In this document: in pieces, positions 4,267-61,552 of the stretch | Numbering within the stretch: the stretch's first letter is position 1 | How the letters are laid out: every line of letters begins with the position of its first letter | DNA from: an uncultured Planctomycetia bacterium | Lineage (GTDB): Bacteria > Omnitrophota > Gorgyraeia > Velamenicoccales > Velamenicoccaceae | Direction: 5' to 3' | Length of the DNA: 64,000 nucleotides | Assembly: GCA_964423185.1 (NCBI GenBank) | Contig: CAYRDK010000005.1 | Span: 115,930 to 179,929 of the forward strand | Notes under the pieces: model-generated | The model's database searches: none | The model's input: the letters and a program-made list of their open reading frames with translations, nothing else | What the model was told of the DNA's origin: nothing | Made by a program: the position numbers and the translations under genes

Positions 4267-4302
4267 AAAAAAACAGGCCTGATTCTAAATAGAATCAGGC
4301 CT
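4267..4302 (-). terminator. Rho-independent terminator after the ferredoxin gene
   Basis: On the minus strand, AGGCCTGATTCT-ATTT-AGAATCAGGCCT is followed by GTTTTTTT. The T-run abuts the ATG of the radical SAM gene. Confidence 0.6.
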
Positions 4303-4363
4303 CTCATTAAGTGCTGTTTTAAAAATACCCCGGCCGATATAATAAAAGACAATACAACGGCTC

Positions 4364-4546
4364 TTACGCAACAACAATAGCATTCACGGGGCACTGATCC
4401 GCAACTTCTTGTAAATCACAATTACAAGTAAATTTTGGTTTCACATGAGCAACACCATCATCCTTCATTTCAAACACTTCAGGACAATTCTGCTCACAAA
4501 GACCGCAACCAACACACAATGACGCATCAACAGTAACTTTTGCCAT
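4364..4546 (-). CDS. Small [4Fe-4S]/[3Fe-4S] ferredoxin
   Basis: CVGCGLCEQNCP and a distal CP are present. I moved the start to MAKVTVD because GAAGGAGG lies 6 nt upstream; the ORF track starts at 4570. Confidence 0.85.
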   Translation of the reverse strand: MAKVTVDASLCVGCGLCEQNCPEVFEMKDDGVAHVKPKFTCNCDLQEVADQCPVNAIVVA

Positions 4547-4637
4547 TTTTTCCTCCTTCAATGAGGCCATACTTTAATAATTTTTACAATCTTAACACAT
4601 TCTTTTATTTTTCTCAACCATTGTTATCAAAAAAAGT

Positions 4638-5782: not shown

Positions 5783-5954
5783 CGATAGCAAGTTTAAATC
5801 CGTTCAGGATTTAAACTATCGACCCTTCGGGCAGATTTTGCCTAATGCAAAATCTGGGTTAAAAAATAGGCTGCTCGCTTCAAACTTGACGTAATCAAAG
5901 GTTAAAAAATACCACTTCTCCCCTTATGTTTCGTAGTTTGAAGCGAGCAGCCTA
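5783..5954. repeat. Three consecutive perfect stem-loops, including a 20-bp inverted repeat with a 48-nt spacer
   Basis: Hairpin 1 is 5783-5821 (cgat/agtttaaatcc-gttca-ggatttaaact/atcg). Hairpin 2 is 5832-5856 (cagattttgc-ctaat-gcaaaatctg). The inverted repeat taggctgctcgcttcaaact occupies 5867-5886 and 5935-5954. Confidence 0.5.
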
Positions 5955-8260: not shown

Positions 8261-8313
8261 CTTAACATTGCCTCCAATTAAGTGCCTTTTCTCTACCTAT
8301 AATTTATAATCCA

Positions 8314-21525: not shown

Positions 21526-21530
21526 TTTAA

Positions 21531-21666
21531 CATTGCCTCCAATCAGGTAATTCTTCTTTACAATGTTAATCCTTGCGTCTGCTGAGAAAAGTTTATGTGG
21601 AAACTTTTCCAGCGGTTAGATGCAAGGGTTAACTGCTCATTGCCTCCAATCAGATAGTTCTTCTTT
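21531..21666. repeat. 29-nt direct repeat (27/29 identical) flanking a long imperfect hairpin
   Basis: cattgcctccaatcagGtaAttcttcttt at 21531-21559 repeats as cattgcctccaatcagAtaGttcttcttt at 21638-21666. The hairpin arms are 21565-21594 and 21601-21633. Confidence 0.5.
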
Positions 21667-21668
21667 GG

Positions 21669-26432: not shown

Positions 26433-26441
26433 AATATTATA

Positions 26442-26552
26442 CAGGGGGCCAGGGTACAGGCAACAGGGTTCAGAAAAACCAAAAAAACTTTATGATTTTT
26501 AACTTTTAATTTTTTTTAAACCGCACCCTGTCCCCCGAACCCTGTACCCTGC
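26442..26552. repeat. Inverted pair of heptamer-periodic tracts (CAGGGNN)n / (NNCCCTG)n
   Basis: CAG recurs at 26442, 26450, 26457, 26464 and 26471. CTG or CCG recurs at 26528, 26535, 26542 and 26549. cagggtacagg (26450-26460) is complementary to 26541-26551. Confidence 0.6.
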
Positions 26553-28352
26553 CTACCATTGAAACTGGATACCGCATTTAAACTGGCGGTCCGATTCAGG
26601 AATACCTTCAATCTCCTGATACTCCACATTCAACAAATTATAAACTTCACAAAACAACCCAACATTCTTACTGACATCAAAAGTAAAACGATCATTGACC
26701 AATACCCACGCGCGGCGGCCAGGTTTTTTCTTCATAATAAAATCCACCCTGTTATGCCCAAATGAAAAACCGGAATCAATACCCAAATCCAACATATGTT
26801 TGGTATAATTTAGGCCGTATTTATAAATTTTGCTACAGCCTTTCATATGCTTATTGGCGAAAAAATACCTGAAATCCACTGTTAGATTTTGAGCCGCGCG
26901 CCAACGCGTAAAAAAATTCAAACCTTGTGTTGAACCTTCGCTGATATTGGCCGCGATAAATTTTGGGTCACTTGGCGTATTTTTAACAAAATCAATTGTG
27001 TCATATTCCTGCCTGACGAAAAAAGAAAACGAACCGTTCAGGTTTTCAAAAAATTTTTTGTTCCACCCGCATTCTAAACTAAGCGCCTGCTCAGGCTTTA
27101 AATCAGGGTCACTTCCTGTCGTCGGGTCACTATAATAAAGCTCCGTAAATGTGGGTATCCTGATTGAACGGCCGAAGGTCGCGTAAATATCACTGGCATC
27201 GCTGAAAAGGCGCTTCAACAAAACAGAACCTGTCAGTTCTTCTTTAAATGTGGAATAATCATCCACCCTTAAAGAAACCTGTGCGTTTAAAGAATCTGAG
27301 AATTGCCAAAGAGAATCCGCATACATATCCCAATGCTGGCGGTTATGCTTGCCTAAATTATTAGAACTAATCCTGTCCTCGCCGTAATCGGCACCTGTTG
27401 ATAGCTTTAAACCATCATGCGGAAACTCAAACCGGCCACCTGCTAAAAACATATCTGTCCGGTGATGATTAAGGTAAAGGCCGGGCCGGGTGATATCCAG
27501 CATGAACTTATCATGATGCTGCCTGAAATCAAACCTTGGCTCAAACGAAAAATGTTCACCTTTCAGGAGGCCGCGCACGTCAAAAAAACCAGTATTGGTC
27601 CATTCTTTTGACGGATAATTCTTGCCTGGCGTATAAAAATCATACGCGCCAAACTCCTTCTCATTATAGCCTGCATCCATAAAAAGGGATGCCTTGCCTT
27701 TTTCGACAGCGCTTGAATGAAAAAACGTAGATGAGCGAAAATCCGTATCATAACGGCATCCGTTGGACTGAGCGTGGTCAAAACTTAAGCGGTTGGAAAA
27801 ATCCTGCGGGCCGTATGCCAAGTTTAACTTTCCTTCAAATGTGTCGTAATTGCCGCCGGCTGCCGACACATAACCTTTTTTTCCCTGAGGCCTTTTTAAA
27901 ACAAAATTAATAGCCCCGCCGATGCCATTAGGGCCATAAACAGAAGAACGCCCTGCCGGGATAATCTCAATCCTTTCAATATCATCCTTATTAAAAAAAA
28001 GGTCTAAATTATGATGTGCCGTCTGCGGGTCATTAACAGGTACCCCGTTAACAAGAATAAGCACCTGCTGAAATGTTGAAGCGTTTAAAGAGACGTCCGA
28101 CTTAACGCCATAAAATCCGCGCGTTTGAACATCAACGCTCAAATAGTTTAAGATATCTTCAGGAGTATTAGCCGCTATTTTTTCAATATCGTCTTCTTCC
28201 AAGACAGATGTCAACACCTCTTCACGGCTACCATAAGAAGCATGCTTGACAACAATAGGTTCAAGCTCTGTTTCAGCATAAACAAAACCCGCCAAAAAGA
28301 TAAGAACTAAACAGGAAAATACAACAGAAGAACTATTTCTTTTTATCATCAT
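26553..28352 (-). CDS. TonB-dependent outer-membrane receptor
   Basis: It has a signal peptide, a plug (…VNGVPVND…IERIEIIPG…SSVYG), a beta-barrel and a terminal …QFQW. I set the start at MMIKRN; it overlaps the cysteine desulfurase stop by 20 nt. Confidence 0.85.
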   Translation of the reverse strand: MMIKRNSSSVVFSCLVLIFLAGFVYAETELEPIVVKHASYGSREEVLTSVLEEDDIEKIAANTPEDILNYLSVDVQTRGFYGVKSDVSLNASTFQQVLILVNGVPVNDPQTAHHNLDLFFNKDDIERIEIIPAGRSSVYGPNGIGGAINFVLKRPQGKKGYVSAAGGNYDTFEGKLNLAYGPQDFSNRLSFDHAQSNGCRYDTDFRSSTFFHSSAVEKGKASLFMDAGYNEKEFGAYDFYTPGKNYPSKEWTNTGFFDVRGLLKGEHFSFEPRFDFRQHHDKFMLDITRPGLYLNHHRTDMFLAGGRFEFPHDGLKLSTGADYGEDRISSNNLGKHNRQHWDMYADSLWQFSDSLNAQVSLRVDDYSTFKEELTGSVLLKRLFSDASDIYATFGRSIRIPTFTELYYSDPTTGSDPDLKPEQALSLECGWNKKFFENLNGSFSFFVRQEYDTIDFVKNTPSDPKFIAANISEGSTQGLNFFTRWRAAQNLTVDFRYFFANKHMKGCSKIYKYGLNYTKHMLDLGIDSGFSFGHNRVDFIMKKKPGRRAWVLVNDRFTFDVSKNVGLFCEVYNLLNVEYQEIEGIPESDRQFKCGIQFQW

Positions 28353-30407: not shown

Positions 30408-30428
30408 GACAACCTTTTCAAACGCTTC

Positions 30429-30656
30429 CTACTCCGTTACCACTTCTTTGATTTCAGGGACCTTGCTCTTAATCAAACGCTCAACACCCATCTTAAGCGT
30501 CATTGACGACATTGGGCACCCACTGCAGGCACCAGTCAATTTCACAACCACCTTGCCATCTTCAGTCACTTTAATCAATTTCACATCCCCGCCATCAGAC
30601 TGCAGCATCGGCCTGACCGCTTTTAACGCCTCTTCAACTTTTTCTTTTAATGTCAT
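30429..30656 (-). CDS. Nfu/NifU C-terminal-domain Fe-S carrier
   Basis: DGGDV.L……[10 protein letters not shown] is present. Confidence 0.85.
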
Positions 30657-30665
30657 CTCATCCTC

Positions 30666-31004
30666 CTATAATGTGAGATAATTATCAGTTATGGAATCTT
30701 CTTCTCTAAACTGTTTTTTAAACAATTTGTTTAACACTTTCTTATCAGAATCCGTACAAATCTCTTCAAAAAATTTCTGCACATGTCTTTTACTTTCTCC
30801 TTCTTTCTGAAAATCAAAAAATATTTTTGCAACGGCTTCGGCTATGATGATAAAAAACAAAACATCTAAAGCCGGCCGGCCCTTCTGGTAAACCTTGTCA
30901 GCTAAATATAACATCCTCGCGCACTGATGAACAATTAATCTTGCCTTTTGATTTGTTTTAGCTGATCCTATAAATTCTTCTGCAGCTTTTTGATTGCCAA
31001 ACAC
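30666..31004 (-). CDS. Hypothetical helical protein (GTG start)
   Basis: There is an ORF only and I recognise no motif. The frame stays open upstream to 31106 without a canonical start. Confidence 0.4.
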   Translation of the reverse strand: MFGNQKAAEEFIGSAKTNQKARLIVHQCARMLYLADKVYQKGRPALDVLFFIIIAEAVAKIFFDFQKEGESKRHVQKFFEEICTDSDKKVLNKLFKKQFREEDSITDNYLTL

Positions 31005-31095
31005 AGAAACAAAATATTCACAAATATCAATACTAGCTATATGTTTTTCTGTTTTTATCCGTATTGAAAATTCTTTTAAACCGCTATCTATCTCG

Positions 31096-31488
31096 TTAAA
31101 GTAATTTTATCGGCAGATGCCGCTTATAACTTTCAAAATCTTTATCACTTGTAAAAATAACAAGATCTTCCAGATAAGCCACCGAACAAATCAAAAAATC
31201 AATCGTTGAACCTTGGACGCCCTTGCTCCTGCAGGCATTACTAAATTCGGCGGCTTGTTCAAAATGTTCTGTTTTAAGCGCTATATCTTCAAAAGATAAA
31301 AGAATACCCTTTAACTGCTCAAATTGGTTTTTATCAGGTATGCCGGATAAAAGCTCCTGGCGGATAAGGCCCATCATGACAACTCTGCCATCTTCAATCA
31401 GGTCTTGAAGCTTTTTGGTTATCTCTAAATCAGGGGATTTATAGCGCAAGGCCTGCGACCAAATACAGGTATCAACTAAAACTTTCAT
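31096..31488 (-). CDS. vapC: PIN-domain toxin VapC
   Basis: MKVLVDTCIW contains the first acidic residue. It is about 130 aa and its start overlaps the antitoxin stop (ATGA). Confidence 0.85.
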   Translation of the reverse strand: MKVLVDTCIWSQALRYKSPDLEITKKLQDLIEDGRVVMMGLIRQELLSGIPDKNQFEQLKGILLSFEDIALKTEHFEQAAEFSNACRSKGVQGSTIDFLICSVAYLEDLVIFTSDKDFESYKRHLPIKLL

Positions 31489-31682
31489 TAGTTTCTGGCC
31501 TTTTTATAGTCATAATCTTTGCCAAAATCAACAGACCCAAAAGCCTTGAAAATATTCAACTGCTTCTTATGAGCAATATATTCCCGTAAAGCCGCTGTCA
31601 CAGCCTCTCTCTTGGTTTTATGATGCCCCGCCTTCTGAGCCTGCATAATCAACTTATCATCCAATGCTAAATTCGTCGCCAT
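31488..31682 (-). CDS. vapB: Type II antitoxin VapB (DUF2191/RHH-like)
   Basis: MATNLALDDKLIMQAQ……KREAVTAALREY is present, with AGGAGG 7 nt upstream. Confidence 0.8.
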   Translation of the reverse strand: MATNLALDDKLIMQAQKAGHHKTKREAVTAALREYIAHKKQLNIFKAFGSVDFGKDYDYKKARN

Positions 31683-31694
31683 CTCAACACCTCC

Positions 31695-31730
31695 TTTTAC
31701 ACATAATATAACACATTATTATGTGTAAAA
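31695..31730. promoter_or_regulatory. 13-bp inverted repeat (TTTTACACATAAT-N10-ATTATGTGTAAAA) overlapping the vapBC promoter
   Basis: The perfect inverted repeat lies directly upstream of the vapB SD. On the minus strand, TTGTTT-17 nt-TATATT is embedded in it. Confidence 0.5.
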
Positions 31731-31837
31731 CAAAGAAATTATTCTAACAATCCATAGACGGCTGATTTCCCATAATATTGGTAACCACATATGGGCCGAC
31801 GCAAGGCCGCCTCCCTATGATGTTGTTAATTCTTGCT

Positions 31838-31875
31838 TCCCTGTGCCCCGTCCCCTGTACCCTGACCCCTGTATT
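31838..31875 (-). repeat. Heptamer-periodic G-rich tract (NNCAGGG)x5 directly after a stop codon
   Basis: On the plus strand, CTG or CCG recurs at 31841, 31848, 31855, 31862 and 31869. The minus strand reads TAA-TACAGGGGTCAGGGTACAGGGGACGGGGCACAGGG. Confidence 0.6.
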
Positions 31876-33163: not shown

Positions 33164-33194
33164 TATTTTTTCGCTTTTCGGTTTACGGTTTTTA

Positions 33195-34214: not shown

Positions 34215-34227
34215 AAAATCCGTTCTT

Positions 34228-34299
34228 TCAGGGTTCAGTGTTCAGCTAGTGCAAAAAAGATTTTGGTTTTACTGAACCCCGTACCCGGTGCCCCGTCAT
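34228..34299. repeat. Inverted heptamer-periodic tracts (GNGTTCA)n / (CCGNNCC)n
   Basis: gggttca gtgttca spans 34231-34244. ctgaacc ccgtacc cggtgcc ccgtcat spans 34272-34299. gggttcag is complementary to ctgaaccc. Confidence 0.5.
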
Positions 34300-34300
34300 T

Positions 34301-36028
34301 TTATAAAATAATATTTAGAATCCCACCTACCAACAACGTCACCCCTGCCATAATCGCAATACCGGCTAAAAGATACTTCCATCCCAGTTCTTTTAAAAAA
34401 ATAACGAATGTCGCGATACAGGGAAATGACATAGACAAAACAACACAAGCGATAATCAACTGTTTGATTGAAAGGCCGAGTGGAATCAATAATCCCGCCG
34501 CAATATCCTTTCTTAAAAACCCGATACACAACGGAAAAATAGCATCTTTAGGCAACCCTAACACAGCCTTCATAACGGGCGCAAAGAAATCACTGACTAT
34601 TTCAAAAATATGAATATACTGCAAAAGATTAATAATCACAACACCCAACATGACGTAAGGGAGAGCATCAAAGATAAACTCTCGAACCCTGATCCATAAT
34701 TTTGAAAAAAAGATATCTGCCGGCGGAAAACGATAAGGCGGAATCTCCAAGACTAATTCAGGGCTGTATCCTTTTAAAGAGTGATTCAAAATAAAACCTA
34801 TCACAACCCAAACAAAAAAAAGTGAAGCATAAACAATAATAAGTGGATATATTCCGAAAGGGCTCAAGAGCCTAAGCATCATGGCCTGAAGCGCCGCGCA
34901 TGGCACAGCAATAGATATCAAGGTTGAGGCGATGAAACGCTCCCGCTTGCTTTCTAAAACACGCGTAGCCATAATACCCGGCACGTTACATCCAAACCCA
35001 AGCAAAATAGGAATGATAGCAAAACCATGAAGCCCGAGCCTGTGCATCACAGCATCCAAAAGCAACGCAAAACGCGGCAGATAGCCGATATCTTCCAAGA
35101 GCCCTAAAACAAGATAAAAAGAAATAATATACGGTAAAACAAGATTAAACTCCACATAAGGCGCCGTTGTTAATAAACCGGCGGAGTTCTTATAATCTAT
35201 TGTGCCGCTTAGTAAATCGCCGATTAAAACATGATGAAGAAAATTATTTTGGCCTAAAAAAGCGCTTAATTTCATCAATAGAGGCGCATAGATATTATTA
35301 AAGACAGGATCCAACAAATACGTGGTCAGCCCCTCGCCGATAAAACGCACAATCTTAAAAACAGCATAAATAACAATAATGCCTATGGCCACGCCGCTCA
35401 CCGGATGTATAGATAAATCTTCTAAAAATTCACGCCAGTTATGATGCTTATGAGTTAACTTTTGCGCGGCTAAAATAATTTCACCAACAGCCTGCCAGAG
35501 TTCATCATGCGTGCGTATGCGCGCGGGGCGAAGTTTAACCTCGCTAAGCCTGTCTTTGAGCTGCCTTACACCCAACGCCGTCACACCGCATGTCGCGATA
35601 ACAGGCGCGCCAAGCAAACTTTCTATCTTTTCAAAATCAACCTCAACCCCTCTATGTTTTAACTCATCACACATATTCAAGGCGGCCATAACGGGATAAC
35701 CCCGGTCAATCAAATCAAGCGTCAGATGAAGATTGCGCTCGAGATTCGTACTGTCCACAACATTAAGCACAATTAAATCTTTATCTTTTCTAAAAGCCTC
35801 TTCCAGAAAATCCCGCGTAACCTCCTCGGCTTTTGACGTCGGTTCCAGGCTGTATGTACCAGGCAAATCAATCACCTCAAACTTCTCATCAGCCAATTTC
35901 ATAAAGCCTTTTCTATACTCAACGGTTGTGCCGGCATAGTTAGAAGTCATCACCTGCACACCCGTTAAACGCGCGAAGACAACACTTTTGCCGACGTTAG
36001 GATTTCCTATTAAAAGAATCTTCCTCAT
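34301..36028 (-). CDS. feoB: Ferrous iron transporter FeoB
   Basis: The G-domain motifs GNPNVGKS, DLPG and NMCD are followed by a polytopic permease. Confidence 0.9.
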   Translation of the reverse strand: MRKILLIGNPNVGKSVVFARLTGVQVMTSNYAGTTVEYRKGFMKLADEKFEVIDLPGTYSLEPTSKAEEVTRDFLEEAFRKDKDLIVLNVVDSTNLERNLHLTLDLIDRGYPVMAALNMCDELKHRGVEVDFEKIESLLGAPVIATCGVTALGVRQLKDRLSEVKLRPARIRTHDELWQAVGEIILAAQKLTHKHHNWREFLEDLSIHPVSGVAIGIIVIYAVFKIVRFIGEGLTTYLLDPVFNNIYAPLLMKLSAFLGQNNFLHHVLIGDLLSGTIDYKNSAGLLTTAPYVEFNLVLPYIISFYLVLGLLEDIGYLPRFALLLDAVMHRLGLHGFAIIPILLGFGCNVPGIMATRVLESKRERFIASTLISIAVPCAALQAMMLRLLSPFGIYPLIIVYASLFFVWVVIGFILNHSLKGYSPELVLEIPPYRFPPADIFFSKLWIRVREFIFDALPYVMLGVVIINLLQYIHIFEIVSDFFAPVMKAVLGLPKDAIFPLCIGFLRKDIAAGLLIPLGLSIKQLIIACVVLSMSFPCIATFVIFLKELGWKYLLAGIAIMAGVTLLVGGILNIIL

Positions 36029-36043
36029 AGTATTCTAATTAGA

Positions 36044-36298
36044 TTATAAAACCGGCTCAACCATCACCTTTTCAGCCATGCCATGGCCTAAAGCTATCGT
36101 TGAAGAACCAACTTTGATCGTTACAGGCCCTCTTAAAGCAAAAGTGCTGAGCTTTACAACATGGCCGCCAAGCCGAATACCCAAAGCCGAAAGCCGATGC
36201 GCAGCCTGTTTGCCTGAAATAATTTCAACGACCTTCGCCGCCGCCCCTTTTTTAAGTTTTGTAAGAGGAATATAGGATATATTTTTTGCGGAACTCAT
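36044..36298 (-). CDS. feoA: FeoA
   Basis: It is a small SH3-like protein with PLTKLKKG..AKVVEI…LGI..G and lies upstream of feoB. Confidence 0.85.
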   Translation of the reverse strand: MSSAKNISYIPLTKLKKGAAAKVVEIISGKQAAHRLSALGIRLGGHVVKLSTFALRGPVTIKVGSSTIALGHGMAEKVMVEPVL

Positions 36299-38191: not shown

Positions 38192-38234
38192 CTATAAAAC
38201 AAAGAGCCTTCTAAAAAATTTTAGAAGGCTCTTT
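38192..38234 (-). terminator. Rho-independent terminator after hppA
   Basis: On the minus strand, AGAGCCTTCT-loop-AGAAGGCTCT is followed by TTGTTTTAT. Confidence 0.6.
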
Positions 38235-38272
38235 GCAAACCATCGCGTTTAAAATATTGAATCTTTAACGAG

Positions 38273-44396: not shown

Positions 44397-44561
44397 AAAA
44401 CCGCCTCCATAGCACGAAGAACCACCAAGAACAAATCAATATACGCTGTTCAGGTATAACCGTTATAACAAATCATCATGGGCAGGTCAAGCAAAAACCC
44501 TTATTAAACCAAACAAAAACAAACCTCTACCCGCTCTATCTTTTAAAAACCCCCCCCCTCA

Positions 44562-45209: not shown

Positions 45210-45289
45210 ATTAACAAGGCCTGTAACACAGCAAAAAGCGAGGCTTGATACACCCCGCTTTCTACAAAATCAGCCTCCTCTTTTAAGGC

Positions 45290-48500: not shown

Positions 48501-48617
48501 ATTATACCCAACTGAATGGTAAAAGCCCGCGGGTCTTCTCCGCAGGCTTCTTTTTATACCACTATAACCACCTAAAATTTACAAGACAAATCTTTTACCG
48601 CCTTCTTACAAAAAATC

Positions 48618-53124: not shown

Positions 53125-54312
53125 TTAAACATTGCCATATCTTAAATCTTTGCCATCATGAGGCGACTGCCAAAATTTTCTAATCGCGTAATAACTTCTA
53201 CGCGGGATGCGTTCATCCAAGCCATCTGCACTCGGTTTAACCCCCACAATACCAAACCACTCCTCGTTCATATTCATATTGCGCTCAGCCTTGATGTCTA
53301 GATAATAAGAACCATTGGACCAGTTAGATTCTGTGTCATGAACCGCCCAACCGCTGGAATCATAATCATTATGCTTCCACCACTCATCGCTCCATTCAAA
53401 CATAACACCGCCCAAACAATTCCCTTCGCCTGAAGAATTCCCAGCGAGATTCTGATAAATCTCAGCCCATTGCGATTCCAAAAAGAAAGCCTGCATATCT
53501 TCATCTTCGCACTTTTGCTGCGCGTTATAAACGTCCGAACCAAATTCGATAAAAACAATAGGCTTATCATATATCTTCTTTAAAGAACTAAAACTATTAC
53601 CGAATGTTTTACCTCTATAGATAACACAACCGACAATATCAATATCGCCAGCCACTTCATGGGCGATATCAAGATATGCCAGCTCACCATTGCCCATCAC
53701 AACAGGATGATCAGGGTCAATCTTATGAATTTCACAAGCCAGCTCATTAACAAGGGAGTAATAGACCCTGGCCTTCTCAGCCAGGCGTTCCCGCGGGTCT
53801 TTAATAGCGTCCAGGCGTTCGCTTGACCAGGAGTTAATCTTGCCACTAAAAGAAAAGTTATTCTCATTTCCTAAGACCCAAAACAGGATACCTTCCTCAT
53901 CTTTTAAGGCCTCTACCATAGCCAAAACTTCTCGCTTTACGGATTTACGGAATTCTTCATCATCATAAAAAGGCGCGGGGTAATTCCAAAAATTAAGCCA
54001 ATGGCCCATCATGGTATGAACGCCGTAATTATGATAAAGATCCTGCACAACCTTTTTTACTTCTTCTAAATTCTGGCCGGCCTGATAAAAACGAACGGTA
54101 TTTACACCCATCTTTTTCATCATTTCGCCGTCTTTCTTCCATGGCTCTTGAGAATCAGCCCAAAAATTATAATCGTGTGTCTGGCCTATAGGAATAGGGT
54201 TATAACAAACACCTTTAACGATAAACGGCCTGCCAGCAACTATCAATTGATAGTGCCCGTTCTTTAGCATTTTAACATAAACTTTCTTATGGTTGGCTGG
54301 TGCCATTCCCAT
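53125..54312 (-). CDS. Clan GH-A (TIM-barrel) glycoside hydrolase with an ambiguous start codon
   Basis: RPFIVKGVCY, GVNTVRFYQ, the acid/base LGNENN, IYRG and the nucleophile region FIEFGSD, then GGVMFEWSDEWW, are present. In-frame ATGs occur at 54312, 54306 and 54429; see the heptamer finding. Confidence 0.75.
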   Translation of the reverse strand: MGMAPANHKKVYVKMLKNGHYQLIVAGRPFIVKGVCYNPIPIGQTHDYNFWADSQEPWKKDGEMMKKMGVNTVRFYQAGQNLEEVKKVVQDLYHNYGVHTMMGHWLNFWNYPAPFYDDEEFRKSVKREVLAMVEALKDEEGILFWVLGNENNFSFSGKINSWSSERLDAIKDPRERLAEKARVYYSLVNELACEIHKIDPDHPVVMGNGELAYLDIAHEVAGDIDIVGCVIYRGKTFGNSFSSLKKIYDKPIVFIEFGSDVYNAQQKCEDEDMQAFFLESQWAEIYQNLAGNSSGEGNCLGGVMFEWSDEWWKHNDYDSSGWAVHDTESNWSNGSYYLDIKAERNMNMNEEWFGIVGVKPSADGLDERIPRRSYYAIRKFWQSPHDGKDLRYGNV

Positions 54313-54317
54313 AAAAA

Positions 54318-54398
<81 letters not shown>

Positions 54399-54409
54399 TA
54401 TCCGATGTT

Positions 54410-60178: not shown

Positions 60179-61552
60179 TTACCTAGCCTTCTTCTGCATC
60201 TCTTCAGCTTTTAATTTTGTCAACTCTTCTCCGAGTTGCTGCGGCGTCTTCTCGCCGATAATAATAGACTGGATGCCTTTATCAAAACGCTCAATAACCT
60301 TAGGCAGTTCATTCACAGGCCAAACATTCGGATGTGTTACATTCTTCATGCCTTTAGCAAAATCCGCAAGAGCCTCCCCAATATCGCCTAAAGCCTTTTT
60401 ATTAGAAGGAAGGTTACGGGTTTTTTGGCTCAAAAAAACCTGCTGGCTTTCGGATGTGACCCACTTTATAAAAGCGATCGCCTCCTCCTTAACCTGTGAC
60501 CTGTCATTAACCAAAAAGGATGACCCGCCGCCGCCCCAAATATACATCGGATGCTGCACGCTCGATTTCGGAGGCAGCATAACACCATAATCCAAATCAG
60601 GATTCATACCATGATAAACATTAACACACCAGGATCCGTTAAAAGCGAAGGCGGCTCTTTCGTTCGCGAAAGCCTGTTCAGCGCTCTTGTTAACATAAGT
60701 TACAATGCCGCTGGCCAACATCCCCTTATCAGCCATATCTTTAAAAAGGCTAAAAACTTTAATCCAGTCCGGGTCAGAATATGGAATCTCGCCTCTGATC
60801 GTCGCGAAAACCTTAGCAGGCCCCATAACATTAAAAGCCATATTAGAAGCAAAACAGTCAATCATCCAAACTTCGCCCCAACCACTGACAAACCCCTGTA
60901 TACCCGCGGCCTTCAACTTTTCACAGGCGGAAATAAAATCTTCCCATGTTTTCGGCGGGTGATCCGGATCAAGGCCGGCTTTCTTAAAGAGGTTTTTATT
61001 ATAAACCATCTGAATATTCATCACGTCTATAGGCGCGCCATAAATTCCAGGCTGCACACCAAAAACATTCCCCTCTTCAAACTCATTAACAGCCAAAGCT
61101 TTCTCAAAAAACTCTCCCTTCCAAAAAGCGTTATCCTTATCCATCTCTTGCGTTAGGTCTGCGACATGCCCAGCTTTGATGAATGCGGCAAAATCTCTTT
61201 TTTCACCTAAAAGGCCAAAAACATCCGGCAACGCCTTGGCCTGCGCCGCGGCCCGCACCTTTTGCGTATAAGCATCAGAGGGAGCATAGAGTTCAAACAG
61301 AACTTTAATACCAGTCTCTTCTTCGTATTTTTTTGCCAGTTCCTGGAAAGATTCTTCTCTGTCCGTCATCCAGTGCCACACGACTATCTTTTTCGTGGCA
61401 ACACGAGGGGCAGATTCAGAAGGCTGAGAAATACAACCTGTTAAAACAGAAGACAGAAGACAGAGGGCAGAAAACAGAAAAAAACAACCACCAAAAAAAG
61501 ACAAAGCTACTTTTTTATTTGATCTACGGCGGGCAAACTTCTGATTTTTCAT
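60179..61552 (-). CDS. Extracellular solute-binding lipoprotein (CUT1 sugar ABC family)
   Basis: The lipobox is LLSSVLTGC. It is about 430 aa with a family-1 SBP pattern (…VVWHWM…). Confidence 0.9.
   Translation of the reverse strand: MKNQKFARRRSNKKVALSFFGGCFFLFSALCLLSSVLTGCISQPSESAPRVATKKIVVWHWMTDREESFQELAKKYEEETGIKVLFELYAPSDAYTQKVRAAAQAKALPDVFGLLGEKRDFAAFIKAGHVADLTQEMDKDNAFWKGEFFEKALAVNEFEEGNVFGVQPGIYGAPIDVMNIQMVYNKNLFKKAGLDPDHPPKTWEDFISACEKLKAAGIQGFVSGWGEVWMIDCFASNMAFNVMGPAKVFATIRGEIPYSDPDWIKVFSLFKDMADKGMLASGIVTYVNKSAEQAFANERAAFAFNGSWCVNVYHGMNPDLDYGVMLPPKSSVQHPMYIWGGGGSSFLVNDRSQVKEEAIAFIKWVTSESQQVFLSQKTRNLPSNKKALGDIGEALADFAKGMKNVTHPNVWPVNELPKVIERFDKGIQSIIIGEKTPQQLGEELTKLKAEEMQKKAR
61447..61483 (-). 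repeat. Heptamer-periodic tract of the CTGTCTT family inside the signal-peptide-coding region
   Basis: On the plus strand, CAG recurs at 61447, 61454, 61461, 61468 and 61475. The minus strand reads TTTCTGTTTTCTGCCCTCTGTCTTCTGTCTTCTGTTTTAA and encodes FLFSALCLLSSVL. Confidence 0.5.

Follow-up and report, generated by a model that had tools for sequence, protein, structure and literature searches.

Heptanucleotide tracts past stop codons in an uncultured Omnitrophota bacterium: candidate arms of selfish hairpin elements resembling 23S rRNA intervening sequences

In a 64,000-nt stretch of contig CAYRDK010000005.1 (hereafter the window, meaning that whole stretch), tandem G-rich heptamers begin directly past the stop codons of several genes, which raises the question of what these tracts are and why they lie there. 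An earlier note, made from the letters of this DNA alone, had described three of them, likened them to the short tandemly repeated repetitive (STRR) sequences of cyanobacteria, presented them as G-quadruplex (G4) motifs that can also fold into long hairpins, and knew of no description of such repeats for this kind of organism. The host is an uncultured member of Candidatus Omnitrophota; the top match of its MnmA protein has 70% identity. Comparison of the window with ~150 kb of DNA from relatives and with further fetched loci (given L-numbers, such as L003, L202 or L083) leads us to a reading that we place slightly on the probable side of even: the tracts are arms of selfish hairpin elements that lack an open reading frame (ORF), resemble the intervening sequences (IVSs) of 23S rRNA and are probably cut by RNase III, the cleavage being proposed by analogy.

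Periodicity and conserved pairing of the tracts

The three tracts are present on the minus strand, which holds all genes called across 3415-64000, and each starts 0-6 nt past a stop codon (TAG 26555-26553, TAA 31876-31874 and TAA 34303-34301). They comprise four (26521-26552), five (31838-31873) and three (34272-34296) units, each unit with a run of at least three G. The array-bearing spacers of the window separate a TonB-dependent receptor gene from mnmA, a CitMHS permease gene from vapBC, a ThiI-like gene from the permease gene, feoB from the ThiI-like gene and, in one case, two glycosidase-like genes. The pattern GGGN4GGGN4GGG has six matches in the window, none of them on the plus strand or away from the three reported sites; 0.45 ± 0.74 matches were expected from 100 dinucleotide-preserving shuffles, none of which reached six. 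The 7-nt periodicity that the earlier note had described was borne out by self-matching, which gave six tracts at lag 7 and zero or one at the other lags not divisible by 3; under a strict threshold four of the five lag-7 tracts were intergenic, in a window (64 kb only) of which ~12% is intergenic. That note had also rightly taken the first two arrays for canonical G4 motifs, those at 26526-26549 and 31846-31869 being the sole G3+N1-7 x4 motifs in the 64 kb. The window has a G+C content of 41.6% and its sense strand is strongly G+T-rich (third codon position: G.26, C.155, T.39, A.195), with a sense-strand skew of GGG runs of 711 versus 261 across 3415-64000.

Among 80 MnmA control loci, arrays of at least three units were absent from those of similarly low G+C, the few array matches all falling in loci with 50-66% G+C. 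A metagenome scan for (CRGGGNN)x4 returned at least 120 loci spanning 35-75% G+C. With crude stop-to-stop ORFs, stop-codon proximity in the 120 loci listed came to 28 versus 20, a comparison that includes spurious ORFs from high-GC contigs. A C-rich arm of at least three units lay downstream of the array in ~16 and upstream in three of the metagenome matches listed. Long TTCAGGG/TTTAGGG arrays at contig ends (L100, L128, L135, L140 and others, sample Ga0307489) have the look of eukaryote-type telomeres and are unrelated matches.

The inverted copies that had been reported for two of the tracts exist, at 26442-26477 and 34228-34250, and both spacers do fold into hairpins, at -50.1 kcal/mol (z = -4.96, 39 pairs) for spacer 26433-26555 and at -23.1 kcal/mol (z = -2.35) for spacer 34215-34303. 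The complete element of the receptor-mnmA spacer (26441-26552, minus strand; hereafter 26.5k) has the 5' arm GCAGGGT ACAGGGT TCGGGGG ACAGGGT GCGG (26521-26552), an A/T-rich and internally partly paired centre (26478-26520) and the 3' arm CTGAACC CTGTTGC CTGTACC CTGGCCC CCTG (26441-26477). It starts right after the TAG and ends 8 nt upstream of the mnmA start codon (ATG 26432), upstream of which no Shine-Dalgarno (SD) motif was found. A promoter candidate within this 3' arm, TTGCCT-16-TATAAT, was rejected, since it would leave only 3 nt from the -10 box to the ATG and the relatives lack the motif. The shorter element of 86 nt between feoB and the ThiI-like gene (34215-34300, minus strand; 34.3k) has the 5' array ACGGGGC ACCGGGT ACGGGGT at 34272-34296, the 3' arm CTGAACA CTGAACC CTG and a hairpin at 34231-34286. 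The strongest element (54310-54407, minus strand; 54.3k; -51.1 kcal/mol, z = -7.14) is not G4-capable and was not among the tracts first reported. It begins 2 nt past the stop TAG 54412-54410, with a purine 5' arm, CAUCGGAUAACAGAGGGCAGAGAACGGAAGAUGGGAGAUGGGAG, at 54362-54407, a loop at 54355-54361 and a 3' arm at 54310-54354 that reads (CTGTCTT)x5, then T6, then ATG. Of the 43 pairs in its stem 13 are G-U, and the ATG of the next gene (54312-54310) is paired with CAU at the stem base.

Four syntenic relatives with receptor identities of 82-84% were recovered (L202, L203, L204 and L205, the spacer of the last being identical to that of L003), and every one has a hairpin with heptamer periodicity (-31 to -51 kcal/mol) in the receptor-mnmA spacer, so that the conservation of position which the earlier note had made a test of its proposal was observed. 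The units are CAGGGNN paired with NNCCCTG in the window and L202, GACAGAG/CCAGAAG (also in a CAGAGNN form) paired with CTGTCTT-type units in L203 and L003, and AGTCAAA paired with TTTTGAC in L204; because they align in register and share flank and loop segments, these spacers are homologous. RNAalifold applied to the five aligned spacers predicted 26 pairs with 86.9% of the cells paired, a share that fell to 41-56% when partners were slid as a control, and 11 of the 26 pairs show compensatory changes on both sides, which none of 500 shuffles matched. In all five relatives the stem base lies 0-18 nt past the stop codon and the stem ends 4-12 nt upstream of the ATG. G-runs are absent from three of the five versions (L203, L003 and L204), so G4 potential, which the earlier note had put forward as the relevant property, is not conserved; judged from these alignments, the conserved property is periodicity together with complementarity of the arms. 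Among distant relatives, L206 has no spacer at this junction, L207 has a plain 13-bp hairpin and L209 a hairpin of another arm family.

Dispersal and likeness to 23S rRNA intervening sequences

The same elements recur at unrelated loci. The 34.3k element aligns end to end, its loop and 3' end too, with receptor-mnmA elements that are not its orthologues, those of L202 and the window (73% mean column identity). In the 54.3k element both loop and arm match an element of L203, and L209 has three copies of ~100 nt that have arms, loop and 3' tail in common. Homologous copies at unrelated loci, with terminal inverted repeats and no transposase, are the constitution of miniature transposable elements with inverted repeats (MITEs) and of repetitive extragenic palindromic (REP) and enterobacterial repetitive intergenic consensus (ERIC) sequences. 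The 34.3k element lies between two direct copies of a 9-nt sequence, ATTTTATRA (ATTTTATAA at 34309-34301 and ATTTTATGA at 34220-34212), and ATTTTATGA, which forms the overlapping feoB stop and ThiI start, is single in L003 (3160-3175), where the site is empty of the element. From its sequence the flanking repeat looks like a target-site duplication, and an insertion that duplicates the overlapping stop/start junction would, if true, explain why elements lie flush against stop and start codons. At this feoB/ThiI junction L203 has a different palindrome, of 188 nt, flanked by ATTTTGTAAGA and ATTTTATGAGA.

In L005, likewise of Omnitrophota, inverted heptamer arrays surround a 120-aa ORF that belongs to PF05635, the 23S rRNA intervening-sequence protein family (E = 3e-21). 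A profile search of all fetched loci found five PF05635 genes, two in L005 (the second copy cut by the locus end) and one each in L209, L077 and L083. Genes of this family (PF05635/TIGR02436) were recorded in heptamer-periodic inverted repeats at L005:16215-16644, L209:8215-8722, L083:3087-3542 and L077:5250-5700, and on the plasmid loci L210-L221. The flanks of the gene in L209, also from Omnitrophota, match the arms of the receptor-mnmA hairpin of the same genome (periodicity by eye), the L077 gene comes from a deltaproteobacterial metagenome-assembled genome, and in L083 the gene and its ATCAGGG-type arms lie between atpA and atpG, with an ORF-less copy between atpH and atpA. Plasmid matches obtained with tblastn came mostly from heterocystous cyanobacteria, the classic STRR hosts. 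One of the 12 plasmid genes inspected lies within a 23S rRNA gene; nine of the other 11 have flanking heptamer arrays, that of Gemmatirosa has an 8-nt period and one has none. On seven cyanobacterial plasmids the PF05635 genes are enclosed by inverted repeats of heptamers. Scored by an objective lag-7 criterion, 12 of 16 PF05635 genes were positive; among control ORFs the figure was 33 of 1394 (Fisher p = 4e-16). Two PF05635 genes with heptamer arms lie between cas6 and cas4 in L214 (Anabaena sp. 90 pANA02) and between cas10 and cmr3 in L217 (Picosynechococcus PCC 7003); insertions in CRISPR-cas operons may explain the appearance of '23S rRNA IVP' as a CRISPR-linked domain in large surveys.

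The plasmid gene within rRNA is that of Azospirillum lipoferum 4B plasmid AZO_p2 (23S rRNA gene, L222:884-4082, Rfam large-subunit (LSU) match) and, being inside a 23S rRNA gene, its insert is a true IVS. The stem of this IVS (32 bp, -66.8 kcal/mol) is itself heptamer-periodic, with the units CAGAGGA CGGATGA CAGAGGA CGGAGGA and then CCGTCCT CTGTCTT CTGTCAT. The Azospirillum IVS and L003 have the 12-mer CGGATGACAGAG in common, L203 (CAGATGACAGAG) and the 54.3k element (CGGATAACAGAG) have near-identical versions of it, and CTGTCTTCTGTC of the IVS matches the 54.3k arm, whose 5' motif CGGATAACAGAGG is similar to the IVS stem. The 23S IVS of Coxiella carries tandem GACAGAT heptamers whose copy number varies among strains, with a 28-bp stem of terminal inverted repeats and a mapped RNase III 5' cut at the first GACAGAT repeat (Warrier et al. 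2016, PMC4990558). One of the GGGAATC repeats of Xanthomonas, #15, overlaps the XCC0516 start codon (supplement of Rehm et al. 2015, PMC4692102), and XCC0516 (PDB 2GSC) is a homologue of the L083 protein (E = 3e-22). The link between heptamer repeats, PF05635 and IVSs across phyla is apparently new: we found no paper that associates PF05635/four helix bundle proteins with heptamer repeats, in a literature coverage that was incomplete, so that a prior description is possible.

The window elements have the long stem built from complementary termini (39 and 43 pairs) and the heptamer stem repeats of the true IVS. No known RNA family, rRNA included, was found in the window by an Rfam scan at the gathering threshold, and the elements lie between protein-coding genes, not in helix 9, 25 or 45 of 23S rRNA; because of this location they are IVS-like and not strict IVSs. 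Their loops hold no PF05635 ORF, which is carried by the related hairpins of L005, L209, L083 and L077. A PF05635/S23p ORF is present in Leptospira, Coxiella and Azospirillum IVSs and missing from many enterobacterial ones.

We propose that the tracts are the purine-rich 5' arms of dispersed palindromic insertion elements of ~90-125 nt, in which four to five degenerate heptamers per arm (CAGRRNN on the 5' side and NNYYCTG on the 3' side) enclose an A/T-rich centre, and which occupy the exact stop-to-start gap between co-oriented genes. Synteny suggests that the genes flanking the elements are co-transcribed; the elements would then be transcribed in operon mRNA and fold into hairpins of 21-43 bp (-23 to -51 kcal/mol). 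They may be the ORF-less form of the 23S rRNA IVS, that is, of a terminal-inverted-repeat stem with a PF05635/S23p gene sometimes in the loop. RNase III, by analogy with IVSs, would cut the stem and split the polycistronic transcript, each half ending in a half-stem and the flanking cistrons being uncoupled; cleavage is proposed because of the IVS precedent and because such stems offer at least 20 bp of double-stranded RNA. G-rich composition, and hence the G4 motif, is one heptamer variant and not a conserved property. We infer transcription and RNase III cleavage in this way, and likewise mobility and any host benefit. If this holds, spacers of this kind are likely mRNA processing sites in operons, among them those of atp, acc, cas and iron-sulfur/tRNA-thiolation genes.

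A wider proposal, to which we give somewhat less than even chances, is that STRR- and GGGAATC-type heptamers and 23S IVSs are one widespread selfish hairpin element with heptamer-periodic terminal inverted repeats and sometimes a PF05635 gene, which would insert where RNA is transcribed but dispensable, at operon stop/start junctions and at the tips of rRNA helices, RNase III then removing or splitting it after transcription. The protein of the PF05635 family, an Avd-like four-helix bundle, may bind four to five heptamers or aid element copying; the Avd protein of diversity-generating retroelements is a pentamer. Periodic binding by a protein of the TRAP, Hfq, CsrA or Rho type is speculation.

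Competing explanations and further tracts of the window

The competing explanation that fares best, though improbable, treats the arrays as neutral simple sequence repeats (SSRs): slippage would favour 7-nt units (an idea of Mrazek 2007), arrays would arise in place in spacers that are dispensable, hairpins would be local inverted duplications, and neither element identity nor function would be involved. Among the long SSRs of most prokaryotic genomes, heptanucleotides are reportedly the commonest class (Mrazek et al. 2007, quoted in PMC4679880), arrays with a lag of 7 are spread over many phyla, and unit number and sequence turn over rapidly between relatives, copy number varying among Coxiella strains as well. 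Slippage in place does not, however, account for whole-element homology, loops included, at non-orthologous loci, for a stop/start junction duplicated at the flanks or for arms that co-vary, nor for the order of the arms (purine arm first versus the reverse, 16 to 3 among the metagenome matches listed), the PF05635 association and a 12-mer shared across phyla.

Regulation by G4s, the view of the earlier note and of Rehm et al. (2015), is less likely again; here the sense-strand array would fold into a DNA or RNA G4 past the stop codon and alter transcription, mRNA stability or translation. Two arrays are the window's only canonical G4 motifs, arrays of four to five units have the minimum needed for a G4, the equivalent Xanthomonas and Nostoc repeats form G4s in vitro (PMC4692102), and the array at 31.8k (31838-31873) has no competing C-rich arm. 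Yet the L203, L003 and L204 orthologues and the window's 54.3k element keep periodicity, pairing and position without G-runs, L005, L209 and L204 have AT-rich arms belonging to the same family, the 34.3k array has three G-tracts only, and a duplex of -50 kcal/mol competes where the C-rich arm is present.

Still lower in probability, and rejected as a general explanation given the absence of U-tracts in most copies, are intrinsic terminators or attenuators between adjacent genes. The location right past stop codons fits them, and the 54.3k hairpin is directly followed by U6, but a U-tract is absent at 26.5k, at 34.3k and in L202, L203 and L003. Ordinary terminators with a short GC stem and a U-tract exist elsewhere in the window (for example 38200-38235, and within 48501-48617, 45210-45289 and 4267-4637), and the heptamer hairpins thus form a feature of their own. 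Only 0-12 nt lie between an element and the next start codon, which leaves no room for a promoter, and the synteny that suggests co-transcription also argues against termination. Lowest of all we rank a translational coupling or shunt, in which the stem base would join upstream stop and downstream start so that terminating ribosomes re-initiate on an SD-less gene: the position of the stem base in all five relatives, the AUG-CAU pairing at 54.3k and the absence of an SD-like motif in 4/4 window genes after elements (versus 23/52 genes overall) would agree with it, but this last point is weak (about p = 0.04), because 44% of genes have no SD motif anyway. The L209 copies have AGGAG in their 3' tail, the same architecture is found in places for which coupling does not matter (within rRNA, around PF05635 genes), and we know of no precedent for bacterial shunting over 40-bp stems.

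Whether the hairpin elements act at the RNA level can be approached through strand asymmetry. Sense folds are far more stable than antisense folds (-50/-32, -51/-23, -35/-18 and -50/-27 kcal/mol), the antisense fold of the 54.3k element reaching only -22.8 kcal/mol, and G-U pairs outnumber A-C mismatches 40:7 in individual folds and 18:3 in the alignment. Because the sense strand is strongly G+T-rich, this G-U excess is partly expected, and we have downgraded it from a clean proof of RNA-level selection; together with the strand asymmetry it is supportive of such selection, a hint that is not decisive.

Several observations weigh against reading the tracts as arms of IVS-like hairpin elements. 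The target-site-like duplication was seen at one site only, with none at the other element sites. Lone arrays (31.8k and its L203 and L204 homologues) have been retained with no partner arm; a model of hairpins alone does not account for them, and they may leave room for a single-strand or G4 function. Covariation within a palindrome could also be kept up by DNA-level conversion between the arms, and the G-U excess, set against an expectation of ~0.67, gives p = 0.004 in the folds and p = 0.049 in the alignment. A PF05635 gene is absent from the 64-kb window, and the evidence for the IVS link therefore comes from relatives and other phyla; the lag-7 test was negative for four of the 16 PF05635 genes (L221 with no array, L215 with an 8-nt period, L209 and L217 periodic by eye only), and the shared 12-mer could reflect convergent constraint and not common descent.

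The lone array at 31.8k (minus strand) is of the 5' type, with the five units ACAGGGG TCAGGGT ACAGGGG ACGGGGC ACAGGG, and follows the TAA of the CitMHS permease gene. No inverted partner or 3' arm was found in a search from 30408 to 31838; downstream follow a vapB/vapC (PIN) module, which has a promoter-like region of its own, and an ORF of 112 aa. Homologous lone purine arrays at the same permease junction in L203 and L204 open, as in the window, the spacer between the permease and NifU genes (window 30408-31873), in which the cargo after the array differs by genome: vapBC and the 112-aa ORF in the window, a 194-aa ORF and vapBC at L202:2507-4140, and a nucleotidyltransferase gene, a 148-aa ORF and an HNH gene at L204:1321-3430, with no cargo in L203 (6631-6967) or L003. 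This spacer may be an integration hotspot.

The weaker AT-rich example mentioned in the earlier note is also real (33164-33194, minus strand, ThiI-like-permease spacer; AAACCGT AAACCGA AAAGCGA AAAAATA). This tract is what remains, a 3' arm, of a heptamer hairpin still complete in L203 and L202 (CGGTTCT TGGTTAG CGGTGAG CGGTTAG ... GATAACC AAGAACC GATAACC GTAAACC). The 3' half of a further element, TTTTTTTCTGTTTTCTGCCCTCTGTCTTCTGTCTTCTG (61436-61488, minus strand), lies inside ORF 60179-61552, where its T-run, GGTT and CTGTCTT-type heptamers form the signal-peptide hydrophobic core of an SBP_bac_1 lipoprotein; it is similar to the L203 arm TTTTTTGGTTTTTCTGTCTTCTGCTATCTGCCCTCTGTC and looks like an exaptation of repeat DNA into coding sequence. 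By comparison, (TCGGCTT)x4 at 36169-36200, in a small FeoA-like ORF upstream of feoB, seems a by-product of protein coding and was not counted as an element.

Other repeats in the window include a ribosome-binding-site leader, AAGAAGAAnTAnCTGATTGGAGGCAATG(TTAAA), that occurs twice in one spacer (21526-21668, minus strand), with a similar TTGGAGGCAATGTTAAG upstream of another gene (8261-8290, minus strand). A perfect 20-nt inverted repeat, TAGGCTGCTCGCTTCAAACT (5867-5886 / 5935-5954, 48-nt loop), is not heptamer-periodic and lies in a 553-nt spacer that also has a small rubredoxin-like ORF. A homopolymer run of G9 then T5 (TGAGGGGGGGGGTTTTT) stands directly past a stop codon (44545-44561, minus strand).

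Comparison with known repeat classes

The class is already described, and not in heterocystous cyanobacteria alone: G-rich heptamers, GGGAATC in Xanthomonas and GGGGA(C/T)T in Nostoc PCC 7120, were published together with their G4 formation in vitro by Rehm et al. (2015, PMC4692102). The window repeats belong to this published class, and their occurrence extends it to an uncultured phylum, Omnitrophota, for which we found no published description of heptamer elements; what orthologous loci add is that pairing is conserved and G4 potential is not. Both sets consist of tandem G3-4 heptamers of about four units, G4-capable and frequently in convergent inverted pairs, with a position that is kept between relatives while length and sequence vary. 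Such tandem heptamers of about four units are found here at 26521-26552, 31838-31873 and 34272-34296, between minus-strand genes and 0-6 nt after the stop codon, and a G-arm followed by a convergent C-arm is found at 26.5k and 34.3k. They differ from the published repeats in host, in the unit CAGGGNN and in the alternation of G-rich and A-rich non-G4 forms at one locus, and that study drew no PF05635/IVS link, despite its own supplement placing repeat #15 on the XCC0516 start codon.

The likeness to STRRs drawn in the earlier note is apt, both being dispersed intergenic repeats of a 7-nt unit with lineage-specific unit sequences. STRR heptamers were reportedly described in heterocystous cyanobacteria by Mazel et al. 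in 1990; their units are CCCCAGT, TTGGTCA and CAACAGT, and they usually form long direct arrays, not short paired arms. This comparison was made by description, except for the heptamer arrays that flank PF05635 genes on Nostoc, Calothrix and Anabaena plasmids. The link between PF05635, IVSs and heptamers makes the long-open nature of such repeats, a puzzle since 1990, directly testable.

ERIC sequences or intergenic repeat units (IRUs), the Correia (nemis) elements of Neisseria, and REP sequences or bacterial interspersed mosaic elements (BIMEs) are small transposase-less palindromes between co-transcribed genes that form mRNA hairpins. Correia elements serve as substrates of RNase III, and ERIC and REP sequences change the stability of mRNA. 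Descriptions of these families set them apart from the window elements by non-periodic arms and the lack of a PF05635 association.

Heptamer repeats have been noted in Geobacter as well, and the TAACTGA direct repeats of marine Beggiatoaceae were proposed to be binding sites of a translational regulator (MacGregor 2015, PMC4679880). The latter are likewise intergenic heptamers of two to six units that adjoin coding-sequence boundaries and occur in several phyla, but nearly all stand in a single orientation directly upstream of start codons, are inverted in 1 of 170 cases and were not proposed to be hairpins.

If the proposed reading is true, an IVS-type selfish hairpin that is a substrate of RNase III would give heptanucleotide repeats a testable origin and mechanism, and would explain the origin of rRNA intervening sequences too. 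The closest comparison is with the 23S IVSs of Coxiella, Leptospira, Salmonella and Alphaproteobacteria. These differ in that their definition rests on a place in 23S helices 9, 25 or 45 and on being excised from pre-rRNA by RNase III, whereas the window elements are ORF-less, lie in mRNA spacers and are only predicted to be cleaved. The two share an extended stem formed by complementary termini, whose loop may carry a PF05635/S23p ORF, heptamers in the 5' stem (GACAGAT in Coxiella, CAGAGGA/CGGATGA in Azospirillum), the CGGATGACAGAG motif and a sporadic, selfish-like distribution.

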